NCBI GenBank assembly: GCA_965207375.1
Contig: OZ242274.1
Coordinates: forward strand, 1,024,001-1,088,000
Reading direction: 5' to 3'
DNA length: 64,000 bases
From: Nitrosopumilaceae archaeon
GTDB lineage: Archaea > Thermoproteota > Nitrososphaeria > Nitrososphaerales > Nitrosopumilaceae
Both the position numbers and the translations under genes were made by a program. Below the pieces are notes generated by a model. It ran no database searches. It had not been told where the DNA came from and saw only the letters and a program-made list of their open reading frames with translations. Shown here piece by piece: positions 11,662-21,108 of this stretch; within the stretch, counting starts at the first letter, position 1, and the number at the start of each line of letters is the position of its first letter.

Positions 11662-11726
11662 GGATGCCTCAACACTCATAATCCTCATCAAAAATCAGAT
11701 GGCTTTTCCGCTTCTCATCAGCATCC
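11662..11726 (-). ncRNA. Box C/D guide sRNA, predicted tRNA-Met Cm34 guide
   Basis: GGATGC-TGATGA-gaagcggaaaagccat-CTGA-tttt-TGATGA-ggattatgagtg-TTGA-GGCATCC with terminal stem; D guide complementary to CUCAUAAUCC. Confidence 0.85.
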
Positions 11727-11837
11727 GCTTTAGATAAATATATTTCAAGATATAAGTTATAGACGTGTGTAACATTGCGCACAGTAGATTTATCTAGCTA
11801 TTTAGATAAAAAAAATTCACTTAATTAATTGTTGGGC

Positions 11838-11907
11838 TGAAAAAAGATTACAAATTACAAACTTTAATTATCATTTGAAAAAAGATTACAAATTACAAAC
11901 TTTAATT
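11838..11907. repeat. Perfect 32-bp direct repeat x2, 38-bp period
   Basis: TGAAAAAAGATTACAAATTACAAACTTTAATT at 11838 and 11876. Confidence 0.9.
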
Positions 11908-12039
11908 GATTCTGTTTTGAAAAGTAATTTGCTGTTCACGATTATACTACAACACACTAGTATAATAATTTTTCAAAAATAAAATTTTGTTGGTACACAT
12001 GAAATAATTTATCAAATAGTACATACGATACAATACAGG

Positions 12040-12228
12040 TTGCAAAAACAAAAAAACCACAAAACAAAAAGTAAACTTGCTACCAAAGAACAAAGATTGT
12101 ACAAAAAAATTGCAAACGCAGATCCTACAGTAATACATCATGTAAGAAAACATTTGTCTGCTAAACAAAGAAAGCAAATAGCAAACATACTGCACAAAAA
12201 GATTTCAGTGTTGGGAGATATGCGATGA
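12040..12228 (+). CDS. Basic hypothetical microprotein, first of coupled chain
   Basis: 62 aa, TTG start, ATGA overlap with next ORF. Confidence 0.55.
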   Translation: MQKQKNHKTKSKLATKEQRLYKKIANADPTVIHHVRKHLSAKQRKQIANILHKKISVLGDMR

Positions 12229-12503
12229 GTACCAGACGACCACGGTCAACCTATATGGACCCAATAAAGAAATTATGTATCACTTGCAGACATGAAGATT
12301 TCCTACATGATGATACTTGTGCTGTCCAATTTTGTAAATGTGAGGGATTGGATAAAATTAGATGTAAGACCTGTAATGTACTGTTCAAACGAAGAACTGC
12401 TGCTATGGCACAGACATGTTCAAAAGAATGTCGTAATAAAAATAGTTACAATACTCAAAAATTAAAAAAACAAGAGGAAATAAAATGGAGGTTGCCTGAA
12501 TGA
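12225..12503 (+). CDS. Cys/His zinc-finger protein (virus-like)
   Basis: CITCRH..H..C..CKC and CKTC...TCSKEC; GGAG upstream. Confidence 0.75.
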   Translation: MSTRRPRSTYMDPIKKLCITCRHEDFLHDDTCAVQFCKCEGLDKIRCKTCNVLFKRRTAAMAQTCSKECRNKNSYNTQKLKKQEEIKWRLPE

Positions 12504-12658
12504 ACTGTCCTGAATGTAACAAATCAATGCAAGTAGAAGAATCAAACTTTAGATGTTTTGATTGTCATGTGAGTTATAATAATGACATCTGGTATTATGA
12601 CAAACTAGATGCAAATCAAATGAGACAAATTAAATTAAGTGAGTTGATGCATGAATGA
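12500..12658 (+). CDS. 52-aa zinc-ribbon microprotein
   Basis: MNCPECNKSMQVEESNFRCFDCH...; GGAGG upstream; ATGA overlaps at both ends. Confidence 0.75.
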   Translation: MNCPECNKSMQVEESNFRCFDCHVSYNNDIWYYDKLDANQMRQIKLSELMHE

Positions 12659-12825
12659 ATCTACTTGAAATTCAACTAAAAGCAAGAGACAGACAAATCA
12701 CATATTTGGCAGACAGACTAATAACAACAGTTCCAAAACAAGAACGTGAAAAACTTAGAGACGAATTAATTAAAGATTGTATACAGATTGCCAAAAATAC
12801 ATTAGACAAGGAGATGTCTGAATGA
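12655..12825 (+). CDS. 56-aa helical microprotein
   Basis: MNLLEIQLKARDRQITYLADRL...DKEMSE*; ATGA overlaps. Confidence 0.7.
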   Translation: MNLLEIQLKARDRQITYLADRLITTVPKQEREKLRDELIKDCIQIAKNTLDKEMSE

Positions 12826-12854
12826 CTAAATGTGTAGATTGTGGACATGAAGAA

Positions 12855-14168
12855 TAGCAGATCTAACTAATAATCGATAGCAAATTTGTCAATTAAAGTC
12901 AACTAAAAGATCTATATGTCGATCTTGTTCCAAGATGGTTACAATGGATAAATTCCTACCAGATACAAACATGAAGAAATTGTACAAACTCAAAAAAGAA
13001 GAAAAAAATCCAAAGGTTGTACAGAGAATTACTGCATACATGTTAAAAAAGGAGGGCAAAACATTGTGGGAAATTTCAAATTCCATAAAGATACCGTACA
13101 CCACGGTTCAAAATTGGATAGACAGAATCAACAAGGAAGGCATTGATGCTAGATACGATAAGAAGCAACCTGGTGCACAGTGTAAGCTGGACAAGAAGCA
13201 GATAAACAAGCTAATACGTGATTTGAAAAAAGGACCACAAAAATGTGGTTATGATACTAATTTGTGGACATCACCCATAATACAAAGACACATCAAAAAA
13301 ATATTCAAGACAGATTACAATGTAAGTTCGGTATGGGCATTGATCACTAGACTTGATCTTCATCTAGTTGCACCTAGACCTAGAAACGACAAGGCAGCAA
13401 CCCCTGAGGAAATCGCAGTGTTCAAAAAAAAAGCTCACCGCAAGGTAAAATACTATAGCGACAAAGGACACACAATTATGACCATGGATGCTGCTCACAA
13501 GCTGGTGGCATCAGTGCCCAAAAAGGGCTGGTTTTTTGAAAAACGTCCTGTATTTATCACAGGCAAGAAAAAACCAAAGAAAAAATCCGCAAAAAATAAA
13601 TCTAAAAAATCCAAGAGTCTCACGATTATAGGTGCTATTGGCGCAGAGAAAGAATATTACTTTAGGTTTTACGATACAGGAAACTGGGTTAACGTGGAAA
13701 ACTTTTTGCAGGGTGTACACAAGAAATTCGGCAAGGTTCTGATGTTTATGGACAATGCAGCTTATCACAAAAAAGATGAGCTAAAACGTATCACAAGGGA
13801 GACAGGTGGTCAGATGCAGTTTGAGTTTTATCTAAAATATACTCCTGAACTCAATCCGATTGAGCCTGAATGGTCGGTCATGAAAAAGAGTATTGCAGGT
13901 ATTATAGCTACAAATGCTGAGCTCAAACGTATCATAGCTCGATCAATAAAAAACAAAACTATTCCAATAGTAAAAATGTTCGACTATTTGATACCGTAAT
14001 TTTGTTCTTTGATTCTTTTGTTTGTAACTATCAGATAATATGCTGTAATATTTTGTGCATTTCATGTTTAGTTGCTTTGATCGCAACTGTTGCAAGTGTC
14101 AATGTCAGGTCACGACTTTGTTTTTTAAAATATGTAGAAAAACTATTGATTATTAGTTAGATCTGCTA
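12855..14168 (+). mobile_element. IS630-family insertion sequence, apparently intact
   Basis: 26-bp TIR TAGCAGATCTAACTAATAATC(G/A)ATAG; flanked by AA on both sides. Confidence 0.95.
12935..13999 (+). CDS. IS630-family transposase
   Basis: HTH domains, DNAAYH, YTPELNPIE. Confidence 0.95.
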   Translation: MVTMDKFLPDTNMKKLYKLKKEEKNPKVVQRITAYMLKKEGKTLWEISNSIKIPYTTVQNWIDRINKEGIDARYDKKQPGAQCKLDKKQINKLIRDLKKGPQKCGYDTNLWTSPIIQRHIKKIFKTDYNVSSVWALITRLDLHLVAPRPRNDKAATPEEIAVFKKKAHRKVKYYSDKGHTIMTMDAAHKLVASVPKKGWFFEKRPVFITGKKKPKKKSAKNKSKKSKSLTIIGAIGAEKEYYFRFYDTGNWVNVENFLQGVHKKFGKVLMFMDNAAYHKKDELKRITRETGGQMQFEFYLKYTPELNPIEPEWSVMKKSIAGIIATNAELKRIIARSIKNKTIPIVKMFDYLIP

Positions 14169-14268
14169 AATCATTTCATACTCAATACAACTGTAAGTAT
14201 GTAGTTGAGACTATAGACGACATAGTAAAAGAATGTGGCTGTGAAGGATACTTGGAGTTAATGCCAGA

Positions 14269-14421
14269 ATGAAATGTGATTTATGTGAAGAACCAATCAA
14301 AAGTTATGATGAGTATTATACCGAACATAATTTACCAATAATTAAACAAAGAACATTATGCAAAAATTGTGTTATGTGCAAAGCACAATTTACTTATCAA
14401 GAGGCTAGAGCATACAAATGA
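14269..14421 (+). CDS. 50-aa zinc-finger microprotein
   Basis: MKCDLCEEPI...LCKNCVMCK...*; GGAG upstream; ATGA overlap. Confidence 0.7.
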   Translation: MKCDLCEEPIKSYDEYYTEHNLPIIKQRTLCKNCVMCKAQFTYQEARAYK

Positions 14422-14434
14422 GGAAGATACTTGA

Positions 14435-14542
14435 ATGAAAATTTGCCCTAGTTGTAATTATCCCATGTCAGAATCAATATCAGATGATACATTATTTGAA
14501 TGCCTAACATGTAATTTGAGTTATGAGGGAGATCCTGATTGA
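14435..14542 (+). CDS. 35-aa zinc-ribbon microprotein
   Basis: MKICPSCNYPMSESISDDTLFECLTCNLSYEGDPD*. Confidence 0.7.
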   Translation: MKICPSCNYPMSESISDDTLFECLTCNLSYEGDPD

Positions 14543-14588
14543 CCAAGTTCAACATCTACACTTGCCAACTTTGTTTTGGGGCTAAATC

Positions 14589-14846
14589 ATGAAGATACAA
14601 ATCGATTGTGATGTCAAGTTCAAACGAACACATGCCATCTTAATACTGGCCATAGGTCTGGTAATAGTTACTGCAATTGGATTACATGTAGGTATGAATC
14701 CGCCATGTGTTGATGGCCAATACAAATACGTACACAGTGCAAATGATATGGGAATAGTAGTACAGGCGATGGATGGCAAGACCATAATTGATTTTAATCT
14801 AGAACCAGGTAACTACTGGGCAAAATACTATGAAATATGCAGATAA
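14589..14846 (+). CDS. Single-TM small protein, end of coupled chain
   Basis: AILILAIGLVIVTAIGL hydrophobic segment; ATGA overlap with 17-aa CxxC ORF 14539-14592. Confidence 0.7.
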   Translation: MKIQIDCDVKFKRTHAILILAIGLVIVTAIGLHVGMNPPCVDGQYKYVHSANDMGIVVQAMDGKTIIDFNLEPGNYWAKYYEICR

Positions 14847-14943
14847 AAGAGAACAAAAATTTAACCAGTTGTTCAAAATCTGTTAATCCACAAAGTCCTT
14901 ATTATATTAAATGCAATAGTGAGATTTATGGTCCCACTATTTT

Positions 14944-15347
14944 TTACGATTTTGTATGTTTCGCTTTAAATCGTTCCTGTTTTTCATACGTTTCTTTTAG
15001 CAGTTTTTGATGGTCGATTAATTTCTCAACTTGCAACATGGTACGCTGCACCTCACAACCGATATCTCTAAATTTATCTTCTATTTCGTTTAGATATTGT
15101 ACAGTAATTCTATCCATCTTTTGGTGTTTTCCACATACAAACTTTAGCACATCAAGACGATCTTCATGCAATATCCTCTTTCACGCCATTTTCGGTCGCG
15201 CACTTCTTGTTCAGCCCACTGTTCTTTTGTAACTGCCGCATATTGCAATTGCTTATAGTCCTCTATCAAGTCAAGTATAGTCTGACTCATATATTCAAGA
15301 TCGTCATAAGTCTTGTGAAATCTCTTGAGATTTAGTTCTACTTCCAT
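14944..15347 (-). pseudogene. Coiled-coil protein, probably one gene frameshifted near 15180
   Basis: Two overlapping helical ORFs join as ...KWRE/RILHEDRL... with a 1-nt correction. Confidence 0.55.
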
Positions 15348-15440
15348 ATACCTATACTGTACACACCATAATTTATGTTTGAAAGCATTCAGGGCTCATG
15401 GTATCACAAACAAGTTCAAAACCAATTATGAAAACACATG

Positions 15441-16082
15441 TCATGTCTTGTGTATTATCATTTCAAGTTGTTGCCATGTCCCGCTTTTTGGCTTTTTACG
15501 CGGTTGGCTTGTTTCCTTACAGTGCAGTATCGTCATACCGTTACCTAGTATACTGCATATTTCTGATTCAGTAAAAAAGTGTATTTTTAATCCTTGTTTT
15601 GGCCCATCATGGTACTGTATAGTAAATCCACCGTGCTTGTTTTTTTCAATAATTTTGTGGGCATGCCAGGGTACAGTAGATGCTGAATTGATGCGTAAAA
15701 ACAGCAAGCCGTTTTTGCGCAAAATTTGTACAGTTTTTGTAAAATAGCGATACACCGTACTATAATCACCATGCTGATATGATTGTATTGATACCACATA
15801 ATCATAATTTTCTGAAACATTCAAAATGTTTTTGCATGAAACTCTTTTTGTTTTTTTGAGCAATTGAGATATGGCAACCTTTGAGACATCTATACCCTTT
15901 ATGTCAAGTCCTGATAAAACCAACGGAAGATAGTTTCTCCCGTTACCACATCCTACATACAATCCTTCTCCTCGTGGTTTATATTTCAATATCGTCTTTA
16001 CAAATTTCACAGGTGCTTGGTGCTGATATCTTCCGGCTGCATATTGTCTGTCCCAACTGTGAGAAATTAAAACATCATCCAT
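15441..16082 (-). CDS. Class I SAM-dependent methyltransferase
   Basis: LYVGCGNGRN motif I, GIDVS, LRKNGLLF. Confidence 0.9.
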   Translation of the reverse strand: MDDVLISHSWDRQYAAGRYQHQAPVKFVKTILKYKPRGEGLYVGCGNGRNYLPLVLSGLDIKGIDVSKVAISQLLKKTKRVSCKNILNVSENYDYVVSIQSYQHGDYSTVYRYFTKTVQILRKNGLLFLRINSASTVPWHAHKIIEKNKHGGFTIQYHDGPKQGLKIHFFTESEICSILGNGMTILHCKETSQPRKKPKSGTWQQLEMIIHKT

Positions 16083-17553
16083 TTTTCATCAATTCAGATT
16101 TTTGTGGGAAAAACTGATCCCAGAATGAGAATGGAGGAGAGGCAATCACAAAACACGAAAATGATTTGTCAGATGTGACAATTACCTTGTGAGCCGTCTT
16201 TGTTGGTATTGTGAGATAATCGCCCTGTTTGAGATGATAGGTATGTTGCTTCTTAATCTGTTCTGGATCCCATGTAATAATATCTGCCTCGCCTGATTCG
16301 ACAAGATATGCCTCTTCAGATGTTGAATGGTAATGCCCACGCGTTGTAGAATTAGATTCAAACACGGCACGTACTACTGAAAAATTTCCAAGATCATGTT
16401 TTGAAGTAAATCTATATAATTTCCCCCATGGTCGGTTTTCCTCCTGTAACATATCTTTTGAAATATGGTAAGGCACAAGGTTGTTGTTAGGTAACATTAT
16501 TGATGCTATCTCTGTTTCTATGTTTGTAGCAAGTTTACAAATCCCTCCGTCGAGTTCTTGTGGAATCGTTTTTATCATAGTTAACAATATTCCTGAAAAT
16601 ACTATTTCCATTATGGTAGTTGATGTTCCATTACCACACATCAAGTTTATTGGTTTGGCCGAACCAATAATACCAATGCGTTTCTTTAGTTTTGCTTTAC
16701 TAAAGTTGCATTGTATAAGTGTCCCTGTTCTAGTTATTTCTATGTGGGCATCATCAAATTCAAATGTTCCAAGAGTCAACATACGTTTTGAAATTTCGCC
16801 TGTTCCACTACCTGCATTTATTACTATTGCACCATTTTTCATCAGTAGAAATTGGCGCACATCAATACCTTTACCGTCCGTACTTGTGGTACATGATATT
16901 ATCACATCCTGAATTTGAATTACATCTCGTATGTCATCTACAACTGTAAATCCATGTGCCGAGGCAATCGCCCTTTTTATGACATCTGAATCCATTATTG
17001 TGACATGACTTTTGTGCGATTTACAAACTTCTGCCAGTCCTTCACCCACATGTCCATAACCGATAATCAAGACATTTTTACCAATTAAAGAAATTGATGA
17101 TTCAGACAACAAACATGATATGATTGATTCAGGTGTGGCTAATTTGTTTTCTATTCTTGTTTTTAAACTTGATTCGGCCATGTTTATGACAGGATATGGT
17201 AATAATGCATCTTTTGCTTTCTTAATACCACCAGTGGTCTGTTCTATCGAATATATGGTACTCTTTAAACTTGGAGTATTCTTACAAATTAATTCTGTGA
17301 CACAGTGACCGTCTTCTACAATGACATCAATGGACTCGATTATGGAAAAAATTTGATTTTGATTAATTATTGTAACCTTGTTTATTTTTGATACTGTATC
17401 ATTTCTGTAGCTTTTTGGAAGATAATATACTCTGACACCCAACAAAACTAGATTTTGAAGAAAAATTTTTGTGGCATGGGTGTTGTGCGTACAGACAAGA
17501 ATATTTCTTTCATTTAATGAATTTGGATATCTTTTTACAATTGATGATATCAT
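16075..17553 (-). CDS. Divergent adenosylhomocysteinase-like protein fused to C-terminal cupin
   Basis: CTH, EDG, EQTTGG, KTRIEN, GYGHVGEG, NAG, PINLMCGNG match the SAHH layout; RPWG and HYH-x4-E...H cupin motifs. Confidence 0.85.
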   Translation of the reverse strand: MISSIVKRYPNSLNERNILVCTHNTHATKIFLQNLVLLGVRVYYLPKSYRNDTVSKINKVTIINQNQIFSIIESIDVIVEDGHCVTELICKNTPSLKSTIYSIEQTTGGIKKAKDALLPYPVINMAESSLKTRIENKLATPESIISCLLSESSISLIGKNVLIIGYGHVGEGLAEVCKSHKSHVTIMDSDVIKRAIASAHGFTVVDDIRDVIQIQDVIISCTTSTDGKGIDVRQFLLMKNGAIVINAGSGTGEISKRMLTLGTFEFDDAHIEITRTGTLIQCNFSKAKLKKRIGIIGSAKPINLMCGNGTSTTIMEIVFSGILLTMIKTIPQELDGGICKLATNIETEIASIMLPNNNLVPYHISKDMLQEENRPWGKLYRFTSKHDLGNFSVVRAVFESNSTTRGHYHSTSEEAYLVESGEADIITWDPEQIKKQHTYHLKQGDYLTIPTKTAHKVIVTSDKSFSCFVIASPPFSFWDQFFPQKSELMKNG

Positions 17554-18769
17554 TGTAAAATCAATACATATTTGGAATATAAAGTCTATTTAATACATCA
17601 GTTAACCCACCAGCAACGCAGAATCTGCCGCAATGTTTCGGTGGGGGCTTTGGATTGATCTGATATTTGGTTATAATTGTAATTTTAAACTAAATCATTT
17701 ACTGTATCATCTCAAATTAAATTCTCCTTTTAAATTCAAATTAAAATTATATCGTCCTCTCAAAATTTAAATTCAAAAATCAAATTAAAAATTAAAATCA
17801 AAATAAAATGATTCTATAGCTAAAGCATTATTTTTATGCACAAGATCAAAAAAATTTGTCCCATACATTAAGAGATCAGTCCTGCATACACCAAAATATG
17901 AAACCAATCAAACGCATGGAACATGATCTCAAGCCCCGCAAGACTCACTATGACGCACAAATGAGACTCAGAATGATATACGCCATTGAACATGGAATAC
18001 ACGTAGACGATGTGGCTGAAATCTTTGGCGTATCAAGACGCGTATTATACGAGTGGAAGACCAAATACGAACAACATGGTCTTGAGGGGCTTGAGGAGGC
18101 TCCCCGTACAGGAAGGCCGTCGTTTCTTTCAGACAAGAAAATAAAACGATGCATGGATAACATCCAAAAACCAGGCAAGATACCAAATGCAAAAAAATTG
18201 CGAGAAGAGATCCACAAAAGTCACGGCATCTGGTACAGCAAATCAGGAATACGAAGGATATTGGCCAAAAACGGTCATACCTTCAAAAAAATTATGCCGG
18301 TTCATGTACGTGCAGCTACAAACGAGGAGGCAGACATTTGGCGTAAAAAGAATCTTCCAAAGATTAGGAGACTGCAAAAAGAGGACCACAAACTTGTTGC
18401 CCTAGATGAGGCATCAGTTGAAATTGATTCAAATTCTAGATATGGATATTGCAAACGCGGTACGAGACTGTATGCCACATACAACGGTACAAAGCAAAAA
18501 GTGCCTATAATTGGCGCCATGGTAGAAGACGGACGATCTATGTTTCGTACAAAACCCAAATTTAATTCACCTACGTTTATAGAATTTTTATGAGATATGC
18601 AACGGACAATGGGGCCCACAGTAATTGTGATGGATAAGGCATCATATCACAGGTCCAAAGATATAAAACAATGGTTTAAAGGATTCTTCTGCTTTATCTG
18701 TTGGTCAAAGTCAATATGCAAATTTTCTCCGAATTGCCCGTGCCTAGATTACTGCCTGTACCAGCAGAT

Positions 18770-18839
18770 CAATCACACATTATCAAAGCAATCACACATT
18801 ATCAAAGCAATCACACATTATCAAAGCAATCACACATTA
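18770..18839. repeat. 19-bp tandem repeat, ~3.6 copies
   Basis: CAATCACACATTATCAAAG units. Confidence 0.95.
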
Positions 18840-18902
18840 GCAGAACATAATCTTCTCCGAGTTGTCACTGTTTCATCACACATGTAACTTTGACATTAGA
18901 GT

Positions 18903-20270
18903 TTATTGCACGTACAGTGCAGCGTTTGATATTACTGTCCTCCATTTTTGTCCGTGTATAGTTATACCTGCAGCCTCTGCAGGCGTCTTGCCTCCAAGAC
19001 TCGAGTGAGGTCGCATGAAATTGTAATAAATATCACATCCTGCAAATATTGGCGAGTTTTTACTTTTAATGCCGCGTCTGGGTCGTTGTATAGCACGTAA
19101 TGTCCCGTTGAATCTTTCCTGGACATTGTTGTTGTTCTTTTTGGAAATTCCTGCATTTGATATGTGTGTGCAATGTTGATGTATCGCGTTTGGTGCAGCA
19201 TACACTGATTCAAATGCTTGTGCATATGAGGGCAGGCCATCGCTTACAAATTCTGTAGGTTTCTTTCCGGCACGGGCTGCTGCAGCTTTGAGTAGGTTTT
19301 CTGCATTGTGTCCGTCCTTGCAGTTTGCAACCTCCCATGCTAGTAAAAATCTGGTATCATAATCAGTCTCTGCAAAAAGATAATTTTGTTTACCTCTTAT
19401 TGAAATGTATTCCTCGTCTGCACAGAATCGATTGCCTGTATTAATTGAAAGTGACATCAGGTATACATACACCATTGTTACAAATTTGATTATCCATCTG
19501 TATATCGTAGATACACACACATACACTCCCTTTTGTGCTAGCGTGTCTTGTATTGCACTAGGTGTATGTCCCTTATAGTAGGCATCAAGTGCATCTAGAA
19601 TCGCCCATGATTCTATTCGTGTGTGTTCCATGCCGCCCCTGTACCCAAAGACACGATTGCAATTTTTGCATTGGTATCGTTGCGTAGTGCCATGTCTACG
19701 CTGTATATGACCATATTTTATGATGTGTTCGTCACCGCAATGCATACAGTGTGATGGAATCTCTATTAGAACTATTTCTGTGGTTTTTTTCTCAGTATTG
19801 TCATCTGCATCTTTGGGCTGTTTGTCCTGGCAAGGCAGCTTAGCTGCATCTTTGGATTGTTCATCAATTATTGTCTCTGCATCCCTGTCTACAGTATCTG
19901 CAATTACTGCTAGGATATGCTTGCATTGAGCCTGTCTGTATTTGTGATCTGGACAGTCACATGACCAGGAATTTTTTTTCTGTATCACGGTATATCTGAT
20001 GTTGTCCTTAGATTGGGACTGTACTGTGTAATGGTTATGCCTGACTTTTTTTATTGCATTTTGTGTTTCTAGTATTTTCAAGGCACGATTTCCGCGTCCT
20101 TGTGCACCCTTGCTCCAAGATACACGTGTACTCATCCATCTAGTAACTCTTGTCATTTTGTCAGTACTGCGCGTAAGCAGTACCGATGTCTTGTTTCGTA
20201 TAGCCTCAAATTTTTCGTGTAGTTTAAATTTTGATCTTGTATATGATTTTTGATATGTTAGTCCCATCAT
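18903..20270 (-). CDS. IS6-type DDE transposase with N-terminal SWIM and zinc-ribbon domains
   Basis: CDCPD..CKH (SWIM), CMHC..YQCKNC, ADE, SDGLPSY, NNVQERFN, YNFMRPHSSLGGKTPA. Confidence 0.9.
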   Translation of the reverse strand: MMGLTYQKSYTRSKFKLHEKFEAIRNKTSVLLTRSTDKMTRVTRWMSTRVSWSKGAQGRGNRALKILETQNAIKKVRHNHYTVQSQSKDNIRYTVIQKKNSWSCDCPDHKYRQAQCKHILAVIADTVDRDAETIIDEQSKDAAKLPCQDKQPKDADDNTEKKTTEIVLIEIPSHCMHCGDEHIIKYGHIQRRHGTTQRYQCKNCNRVFGYRGGMEHTRIESWAILDALDAYYKGHTPSAIQDTLAQKGVYVCVSTIYRWIIKFVTMVYVYLMSLSINTGNRFCADEEYISIRGKQNYLFAETDYDTRFLLAWEVANCKDGHNAENLLKAAAARAGKKPTEFVSDGLPSYAQAFESVYAAPNAIHQHCTHISNAGISKKNNNNVQERFNGTLRAIQRPRRGIKSKNSPIFAGCDIYYNFMRPHSSLGGKTPAEAAGITIHGQKWRTVISNAALYVQ

Positions 20271-21108
20271 TGCGAAATACGATGGGACTACATGTCGTGT
20301 GTATTTGGATCATGTGGGTTAACAAATTTTGAAAAAATGGTTAAATTTTTGATCTCTTTTACCGGTACAAAAGCAAATTATGCTGCAATTGAAGAAATTT
20401 TAGGCACGCGCAATCCGGAGAAAATTTGCATAGTGACTTTGACCAACAATTAACGCTGGAGAATCGTTTAAAGATAATCCAAAAACCGTGCCAATATATC
20501 TGCCCACTGGTTCTCCCCACATGAATGACATAGAGGGTAAGTGGGGTGTTACAAAATCTGAGATAAGTGATATCGTATATCAAAATATTAATGAATTCAA
20601 GGCAGGTCTATACAAGGCACTGCGTCACAATAACTATCCAACAAACATTTACCAAAAATTATTCAAGCGTCTAGATAATGCTGCAGAAGCATGTATCATC
20701 CATGCAAGACACAAACTTGGATCATGCTGATCTGTTTTAGTAACAAGTTACGCACATAACAAAATCGTATCATCTAATTGATATGGATCATTTCATAAAT
20801 TCGATCTGACACTGTACGTCTGTTTGTACTTGATTCTTATACAAAACATGTGATCGGCCAAGATATCCCAATACAATTGTGAATCCACTTTGTATGACTG
20901 AATTTTGTTATTTTATTTACTTGCAAATTAGTGCAGAAAAATAATGCTTTAGCTATATAGTATATGGGGGCATTATTTTAATCTAGTAAGATAAGGTGTC
21001 ACTTTGAAGCGACAGTCTATTTTACTATTTTAGTCAAACACAAACTTGTCATCAGGATTGACAAAATATTGAAAAATGGTCAAGGTCTTTGTAGATCTGT
21101 TGATTGTT

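Follow-up and report, generated by a model that had tools for sequence, protein, structure and literature searches.

What are ten very small open reading frames (ORFs), linked one to the next through overlapping stop and start codons, doing in the genome of a Nitrosopumilaceae archaeon, and where did they come from? The question is raised by positions 12040 to 14846 of the 64,000-nucleotide (nt) window analysed here, which is the whole stretch C1:1024001-1088000 of a genome (G000) carrying archaeal amoA (E 8.9e-115). Coordinates without a contig label are positions in this window, on the + strand unless stated. An earlier reading of the DNA, the sequence-only reading, had seen in this array either the remnant of an undescribed thaumarchaeal virus or a set of cassettes shuffled at their junctions. 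Our analysis leads to a partly different answer: the array is probably an orphaned, outward-facing and translationally coupled accessory operon of a family of plasmid- or virus-like integrated elements that is also resident elsewhere in the same genome.

The chain of overlapping micro-ORFs

The ten ORFs, named o1 to o10 here, lie end-to-end on the + strand and measure 62, 92, 52, 56, 44, 50, 6, 35, 17 and 85 amino acids (aa), 499 residues in sum, exactly as the sequence-only reading had placed and sized them. At each of the nine junctions the start codon sits over the preceding stop, in eight cases as ATGA and in one as TTGA, and five of the nine spell GAATGA. An insertion sequence (IS) interrupts o5, and several starts are preceded by Shine-Dalgarno (SD) motifs.

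12040-12228, + strand: o1, 62 aa, basic, TTG start; weak HTH_38 match (E 0.08)
12225-12503, + strand: o2, 92 aa with 9 Cys; N-terminal C-x2-C-x-H-x4-H...C-x-C module and C-terminal C-x2-C...CS-x2-C module
12500-12658, + strand: o3, 52 aa, C4 zinc-ribbon-like, with sub-threshold zinc-ribbon Pfam matches; apparent paralogue of o8
12655-12825, + strand: o4, 56 aa, charged, read as helical; codon score 0.365 per codon
12822-12854, + strand: 5' part of o5, 11 codons, interrupted by the IS
12855-14168, + strand: IS630-like element of 1314 bp, no part of the operon; 354-aa DDE_3 transposase at 12935-13999 (Pfam E 1.6e-15)
14171-14272, + strand: 3' part of o5, 33 codons and stop (14169-14170 is the duplicated AA)
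14269-14421, + strand: o6, 50 aa; C-x2-C ... C-x2-C-x2-C
14418-14438, + strand: o7, 6 codons
14435-14542, + strand: o8, 35 aa, C4 zinc-ribbon-like; apparent paralogue of o3
14539-14592, + strand: o9, 17 aa, TTG start, one CxxC; a GAGGGAG SD ends 7 nt upstream
14589-14846, + strand: o10, 85 aa; predicted to cross the membrane once, its small C-terminal part rich in beta structure
14940-14945, + strand: candidate archaeal terminator, the first T6 run past the array

The IS630-like element has mutually reverse-complementary ends, and its transposase also matches HTH_33/32/29/23. Four full copies, 100% identical, are present in the genome. A TA target-site duplication is typical of the IS630 family; the copy in o5 is flanked by AA on both sides and the other three full copies by TA. 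On removal of 1316 nt (the IS and one AA) the two halves of o5 fall in frame as a single ORF of 44 aa. This arrangement exists outside the computer: a 4360-nt contig of the same organism from run X1 joins 12852 to 14169, skips precisely these 1316 nt and shows zero differences, so that it represents the empty site. Contigs of run X3, for their part, pass from both flanks into the IS. The insertion is thus polymorphic between sister samples and very recent, and the ten-ORF chain, which the sequence-only reading had called unbroken once the IS was removed, is real in nature. In the assembled lineage the insertion splits o5 and should be polar on o6 to o10. Sister samples with and without the IS amount to a natural knock-out pair and would allow a test of the operon's role that needs no genetic tools, of which few exist for these organisms.

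Chains of this kind are rare. We scanned the whole 4.3-Mb genome, with the array locus in its empty-site form, for NTGA-coupled ORFs and found chains of at least eight ORFs spanning at least 900 nt at only four loci: the array (9 ORFs from o2, 10 with o1), two loci within an integrated element resident elsewhere in the genome (12 and 11 ORFs), and one spurious-looking locus. The last, at C1:1961327, was ruled out as a second array by its TTG/GTG starts, its lack of an SD and its hydrophobic junk products. In three 2-Mb first-order Markov simulations, read on both strands, no chain of at least five ORFs reached 900 nt, the longest spans being 756-819 nt.

The junctions also share their local sequence. 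GGAG or GAGG occurs at -18 to -5 of seven of the nine junction starts, compared with 4.2% of 108,838 ATGA/TTGA sites (binomial P = 8e-9), which confirms the GGAG-like motifs that had been noticed before most starts; the 3' end of the 16S ribosomal RNA offers the matching anti-SD, CCTCC. The longer motif GA[AT]TGA is found at six of the nine junctions, against 4.2% of all sites (P = 4e-7) and 7.4% of the 487 long ORFs ending in [AT]TGA (P = 1e-5). It occurs at only 2 of 14 junctions in the resident element. Owing to the GA before the overlap at these six junctions, the last residue is Glu in five of the upstream ORFs and Asp in the sixth; in o3, o4, o5, o8 and o9 the motif also puts a TGA directly before the start codon in the new frame.

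Termination-reinitiation at ATGA overlaps with an intragenic SD was shown experimentally in Haloferax volcanii and Escherichia coli (Huber et al., 2019; PMC6728339). The array resembles the overlapping ATGA pairs described in that study and in PMC10666635 in being co-directional, with 4-nt overlaps and an SD in the upstream 3' end. It differs from the pairs described in the former by its nine consecutive junctions, its ORFs of 6-92 aa and the extra GA before the overlap, and coupling is here a prediction. We suggest that ribosomes would move from ORF to ORF by termination-reinitiation at the ATGA/TTGA overlaps, helped by the SD in the 3' end of the upstream ORF, and that o7 and o9 could act as relays. 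The 17-codon o9 is probably a relay into o10, because its own SD is strong (GAGGGAG) while the SD position of o10 holds just GGGG. The six-codon o7 may likewise be a relay micro-ORF or, equally, a 13-nt spacer carrying the SD of o8. No run of five or more T is present on the + strand of the array outside the IS before the T6 at 14940-14945, a distribution compatible with a single transcript. With nine consecutive stop-start overlaps, some of them running through ORFs of 6 and 17 codons, the array would be a very clean natural case of extreme coupling. Most of its micro-proteins are easily overlooked by gene callers, which makes it a test case for small-ORF annotation in ammonia-oxidising archaea.

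The predicted products are rich in cysteine (33 of 499 residues). Six ORFs (o2, o3, o5, o6, o8 and o9) carry CxxC, in line with the count of the sequence-only reading; o2, o3, o6 and o8 contain paired CxxC knuckles offering four ligands, and o5 has C-x2-C-x-H...C-x-C. Judged by their alignment (z = 8.8, a score reached by 0 of 300 shuffles), o3 and o8 are clear paralogues. The motif C-x2-C-x-H-x4-H...C-x-C-E-G, which had already been recognised in two of the ORFs, is shared by o2 and o5; these two look paralogous, although with a less extreme alignment (z = 4.0, score reached by 2 of 300 shuffles). The operon would thus encode at least four predicted zinc-ribbon or zinc-finger proteins (o2, o3, o6 and o8), two products with Cys motifs (o5 and o9), the charged o4 and the membrane protein o10. 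The hydropathy of o10 reaches 2.68 over residues 16-34, and a single-sequence AlphaFold2 (AF2) model places a helix at residues 3-36 followed by three strands. Codon usage is gene-like for o4, o5 and o10, and both o4 and o10 are present as called proteins in a 5.8-billion-protein collection. By analogy with the small zinc-finger proteins of archaeal mobile elements, the products are most likely small nucleic-acid- or protein-binding regulators or host-interference factors.

Regulatory DNA and genomic setting

The connection of the array to a mobile element comes from the DNA upstream of it.

11667-11728, - strand: host C/D-box small RNA (sRNA), sub-threshold Rfam sR41 match (29.3 bits, E 4.4e-4); last host-conserved feature of the left flank
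11735-11810, + strand: degenerate tRNA-gene copy, comprising the promoter region and first ~25 nt of an intron-containing tRNA gene
11838-11869 and 11876-11907, + strand: two identical 32-nt direct repeats, 38 nt from start to start, iteron- or operator-like
11908-11985, + strand: promoter-like block with a TATA-like TATAATAA at 11962-11969, assigned by eye

The module formed by the repeats and the promoter-like block (11838-11985) recurs at two other places in the genome, with 89% identity in L041 (C1:1474001-1494000) and 87% in L006/L043, and the small ORFs behind the shared promoter differ between all three loci. L041 belongs to the resident element, which spans about C1:1467000-1506000 (L041 and L042) and in which a related 37-nt unit is repeated 4.8 times in tandem (L041 5956-6132). 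There, the module faces away from rightward genes encoding an N6_N4 DNA methylase, a 670-aa D5_N/DUF5906/Pox_D5 primase-helicase, a 796-aa PolB, an XPD-like helicase and PriL; the element continues in L042 with MT-A70, PriS, an Eco57I-type methylase, an SNF2/PLD helicase and HNH. Besides the Eco57I-type methylase, the element carries three DNA methylases. A non-exhaustive search revealed no virion gene in the 32 kb of it that were read. Its 12-ORF ATGA/TTGA chain has GGAGG motifs and includes ORFs of 17, 18, 25 and 31 codons, of which the 31-codon one starts with TTG and encodes a C2H2 finger (zf-met, 22.1 bits for a cut-off of 21.2). L006/L043 is what a deletion has left of the resident element, with a C-terminal piece of D5 (85% identity) and, read by eye, an N-terminal piece of PolB. 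D5-like helicase homologues were found in 25 of 300 other genomes of the family, and in one genome of the same genus (L058) a coupled chain of 49, 28, 66, 56, 43 and 102 codons, encoding Cys-rich proteins, lies behind the replication genes.

In the mechanism that we propose, transcription would begin at the archaeal TATA-type promoter just downstream of the two iteron-like repeats and yield one mRNA. As the regulatory module is shared with the PolB/D5-helicase element, the operon would probably be controlled by that element's regulator through the repeats. A scan for sigma-70-type promoters gave fewer sites than shuffled sequence, but this model is inapplicable to archaea.

The array lies in an island. 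Matches to relatives run to about 11734 and resume at about 21117, and the 9.4 kb between (11729-21100) are unmatched in the 20 relatives searched. Besides the array, the island contains a split 134-aa gene, a methyltransferase, an AdoHcyase-like/cupin protein and three ISs. Searches of the island with Pfam and PHROG found no integrase, capsid, portal, terminase or Rep match, and the sequence-only reading, which had seen no integrase, capsid or Rep gene, was right on this point. Direct repeats of att type flanking the island were not found either. To the left, SRP54, the diphthamide synthase gene and the C/D-box sRNA are conserved in relatives, where an element like this sRNA also adjoins the diphthamide synthase gene (81-93% conserved within the family). 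To the left and right of the island, the host DNA falls into different synteny blocks, and eIF5A, a left-flank neighbour in a relative, is found ~950 kb away here; on this synteny evidence, the array is located at a genome rearrangement point.

The tRNA-gene fragment at the left edge of the island has 82% identity over 60 nt to C1:1996833-1996892, which runs into an intact tRNA gene (C1:1996875-1996975; 43.8 bits, gathering score 29) that contains an intron of 17 nt as well as a long additional insert. That gene was missed by ARAGORN and by a larger Rfam search, and was found in a 400-nt Rfam search. The fragment was also compared in a three-way alignment. A second truncated copy, at C1:~1370253-1370340, lies between genes for a T2SSE ATPase and a VirB4/TraG-like ATPase. 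The region around this second copy (C1:1366001-1376000, L062) is conjugative-element-like, with a T2SSE ATPase, an AAA_10/TraG P-loop ATPase and an N6_N4 methylase. No tRNA was found beside the sRNA in the relatives examined, and the fragment at 11735-11810 may be an att-type scar. Altogether, a mobile-element origin of the array is supported by the module shared with the resident element and its remnant, by the tRNA fragment at the edge, by the IS-rich island and by the lack of a match in relatives.

Origin of the array and rival explanations

The array proteins appear to form new families, although the kind of locus is already known. A phmmer search with o2 among 1.84 billion representative proteins gave 0 matches at E <= 0.001, and in the 5.8-billion collection o4 and o10 each matched itself alone. 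Among 300 other family genomes, the o2 protein had marginal matches in 11 (best 21.7 bits), with stops in 7 of 12 rows; the DNA of 11837-12852 gave only noise matches of 25-76 nt (up to 46 bits) in 28 of 400 other family genomes, and the array DNA had no match in 20 relatives, including 4 of the same genus. JGI metagenome contigs queried with o4 and o10, and GTDB genome contigs queried with o1 and o4, returned nothing. The sequence-only reading had proposed to look for homologues in IMG/VR and in the genomes of the family, and none was found: protein scans of IMG/VR with o1, o2, o3, o4, o6 and o10 produced no relative, only spurious matches, and a 20-mer of the promoter was absent. We rejected the IMG/VR match of o1 (L044), a lysine-rich stretch without an ORF in a tailed-phage contig, and those of o3 (L045-L047), generic zinc knuckles only (L044 and L046 were inspected). 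In a phage database, a DNA search yielded only 65 nt of Lactococcus-phage noise, and tblastn with o2 and o10 found nothing. Pfam, PHROGs, PADLOC and NCBIfam gave sub-threshold zinc-knuckle matches only, the best Pfam zinc matches scoring 13-17.5 bits against cut-offs of 21-28, so no curated zinc family is matched above threshold. When all micro-ORFs were compared by tblastn with their own genome and the related element loci, only a partial copy of o1 and the o3-o8 similarity appeared. An 84-aa ORF of the resident element, considered as a relative of o2, was rejected (direct BLASTP E 1.6).

The cryptic integrated elements of ammonia-oxidising archaea, with their PolB, primase and helicase modules (Krupovic et al., 2019; PMC6563490), offer the closest frame for these results. 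As far as that survey describes them, the array is like them in the regulatory DNA that it shares with such a resident element, in the tRNA-gene fragment at its edge, in having an IS insertion and in its lack of a match in the relatives searched; transposon insertions are reported there for seven integrated elements. Unlike the elements described, it is a 3-kb operon only, with no replication gene, integrase, second att copy or matching protein. The dark matter islands of archaeal genomes, where small proteins and integrated elements are over-represented (Makarova et al., 2014; PMC4158269), provide a second parallel. Like the islands described in that work, the array is narrowly spread, rich in small and membrane proteins and tied to integrated elements, but it is a single compact operon with an unusually regular junction grammar. 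Finally, early and anti-defence genes of archaeal viruses have been found via a shared regulatory sequence (Bhoobalan-Chitty et al., 2024; PMC11065993). The array likewise consists of small ORFans behind a promoter that recurs in the mobile-element pool, whereas, in contrast to the cases presented there, no virus was identified for it and PADLOC found nothing meaningful. As it stands, the array is mobile-element cargo of an ordinary kind, and what is new in it are the protein families.

Several observations weigh against the view of the array as an orphaned operon of the resident element's family. No homologue of any of its ORFs turned up in the collections searched, no array protein matches a protein of the resident element, and the regulatory DNA that they alone have in common could reflect promoter capture, not common descent. 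The island yielded neither an integrase nor a replication gene nor a second att copy. Several proteins of the L058 chain and small ORFs of L041 and L056 contain a C-x2-C...CS-x2-C motif that resembles residues 45-76 of o2, but the hhalign match between this part of o2 and the small proteins encoded by related elements is weak (E 8.9e-4, probability 23%). The codon score of the array, 0.18 per codon, is intermediate between that of long ORFs cut into 60-codon pieces (0.32 +/- 0.16) and that of antisense ORFs (0.05 +/- 0.21); it is about 0 for o2 and negative for o9. Both AF2 models are of low confidence (pLDDT, the predicted local distance difference test, is 53.6 for o2 and 62.6 for o10). The weakest ORF is o1, which starts with TTG, has no SD and may be partly a 5' leader and not coding, because a decayed second copy in L006 keeps the DNA of its first 31 codons (94 nt) at 87% and yet breaks the frame with two 1-nt indels.

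Some of these points could be taken to mean that the ORFs are non-functional, either ORFs that arose by chance or what frameshifts have left of one or two larger genes. The absence of homologues for every array ORF, the poor codon scores of o2 and o9, the shortness of o7 and o9, which precludes judgement, and the decayed DNA that abounds nearby would all fit. We nevertheless hold this explanation to be extremely improbable, as every junction has its own start exactly over the stop, with a well-placed SD at seven of nine, as nothing comparable arose in simulated sequence, and as the Cys knuckles are ordered and some of the modules paralogous to each other. Further evidence is provided by a relative present in runs X4 and X5 of another study, in short contigs of low depth (4-12x) whose matches are clipped at 85% likeness. 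At least 25 differences from this relative are listed in o10. They change 20 codons, 9 of them synonymously, in the o10 frame, compared with 3 of 21 and 2 of 18 synonymous changes in the other frames, and none of the listed differences puts a stop into the o10 frame. The substitution pattern therefore favours the o10 reading frame, although such a conservation test was possible on half of o10 only, from the differences listed.

A cellular operon of small zinc-binding proteins, for instance with a stress or regulatory role and with no tie to mobile elements, is also conceivable. Small zinc-finger proteins are common among archaeal cellular genes; host genes (the C/D sRNA and diphthamide synthase) adjoin the array, and it was intact until the very recent IS insertion. 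Yet the array was not found in the 20 relatives, 4 of them in the same genus, nor in the 400 family genomes searched at the DNA level, the 300 searched with the o2 protein gave marginal matches only, and its regulatory region is common only to mobile-element loci. We regard a purely cellular origin as very unlikely.

The viral origin put forward by the sequence-only reading must be divided. Its mobile-element part is strengthened by the shared module, the tRNA fragment and the IS-rich surroundings; the virus itself finds no such backing, as no capsid or packaging gene was seen in the island or in the parts of the resident element that were read, and the IMG/VR and phage searches found no relative. 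Small zinc-finger ORFans in tight same-strand arrays do fit the general picture of archaeal viruses. One can imagine a genuine provirus, as yet undescribed, with the array as its early region and the remainder lost or moved by IS-mediated rearrangement: the genome is rearranged at this locus, with eIF5A ~950 kb away, a tRNA fragment marks the edge, and dark-matter islands show an enrichment of small proteins as well as of integrated elements (Makarova et al., 2014; PMC4158269). However, no capsid, portal, terminase or integrase match exists in the island, IMG/VR gave just two spurious kinds of match (the lysine-rich stretch and the generic zinc knuckle) and none for the promoter 20-mer, the phage database was empty for o2 and o10, and the resident element encodes replication and restriction-modification genes, with no virion gene in the 32 kb covered by the non-exhaustive search. 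A provirus is thus an unlikely source, in our opinion.

Cassette shuffling at the SD-GAATGA junctions, the other proposal of the sequence-only reading, received some hints and no mechanism. Integron gene-cassette arrays consist of one promoter before a string of small unrelated ORFs, with attC sites and an integron integrase. The array similarly has one promoter and small, unrelated, exchangeable-looking ORFs, but it lacks an integron integrase or attC, its ORFs overlap instead of being separated by recombination sites, and its junctions share only the SD and GA[AT]TGA. In this explanation, micro-genes would be exchanged between elements by recombination at SD-N-GA[AT]TGA junctions, with integron-like logic, behind a portable module of iterons, promoter and leader. 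The enrichment of GA[AT]TGA at the array junctions over all sites, long ORFs and the resident element would be expected from it, as would the same promoter-leader before three different gene sets and the presence of paralogous modules (o3/o8 and o2/o5) in one array. The X4/X5 relative adds a further hint. Its contigs match 11837-12248 (with o1) at ~98%, 12487-12793 (o3-o4) at ~95-97%, and 14670-14956 and 15079-15390 at ~84-89%, leaving a gap at 12248-12487 around o2; one match ends at 12248, 23 nt into o2, and another begins at 12487, which is the SD of o3. The body of o2 and 14169-14669 are without cover, which the low depth may be enough to explain. This mosaic fits recombining mobile DNA and hints at an exchange of o2, but with short, clipped contigs a divergence below 85% would look alike, and o2 may have diverged without being replaced. 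Moreover, neither a site-specific recombinase nor an attC-like inverted repeat at the junctions was found, and selection for reinitiation or tandem duplication of units would also yield the junction motif. We consider cassette exchange quite unlikely. If true, it would amount to an integron-like shuffling of host-interference or anti-defence peptides without a dedicated integrase, and an exchange through the junction motif and the portable promoter would reveal how the mobile elements of archaea bring variety to their small effector proteins.

Neighbouring features

Just 3' of the array, a convergent gene occupies 14944-15347 on the - strand as two ORFs of 67 and 75 aa that share 28 nt and whose frames differ by 2. 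Two 1-nt differences, at 15168 and 15172, would unite them into one gene of ~134 aa in the X4/X5 relative, so that the gene is either split in this genome or fused in the relative; its products have no family match. A 55-nt stretch that overlaps the end of o10 (14838-14892) shows 89% likeness to the DNA that directly precedes the transposase gene of a multi-copy SWIM/DDE IS, with a related stretch at 20313-20361. It is not a recent scar, to judge from its presence in the contigs of the X4/X5 relative.

A second IS630-type transposase gene, at 17856-18887, is apparently split into ORFs of 245 and 96 aa, with a 19-nt unit repeated about four times in tandem at its end (18765-18840). Near the conserved SRP54/diphthamide synthase locus of the relative G009 lies a match to a CRISPR repeat family that stays below threshold (37 bits for a cut-off of 50; L013 3281-3316). 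The genome as a whole measures 4.3 Mb in four contigs, against 0.8-1.8 Mb for relatives of the family outside the genus and up to 3.2 Mb within it, which makes it two to three times the size of most family members. The label thaumarchaeal given by the sequence-only reading agrees with the amoA gene and the genomes of these relatives. Near-identical ISs are abundant, with the four IS630-like copies and at least 10 copies of an IS of ~1.79 kb carrying a SWIM/DDE transposase, one of which lies in the window at ~18676-20470.

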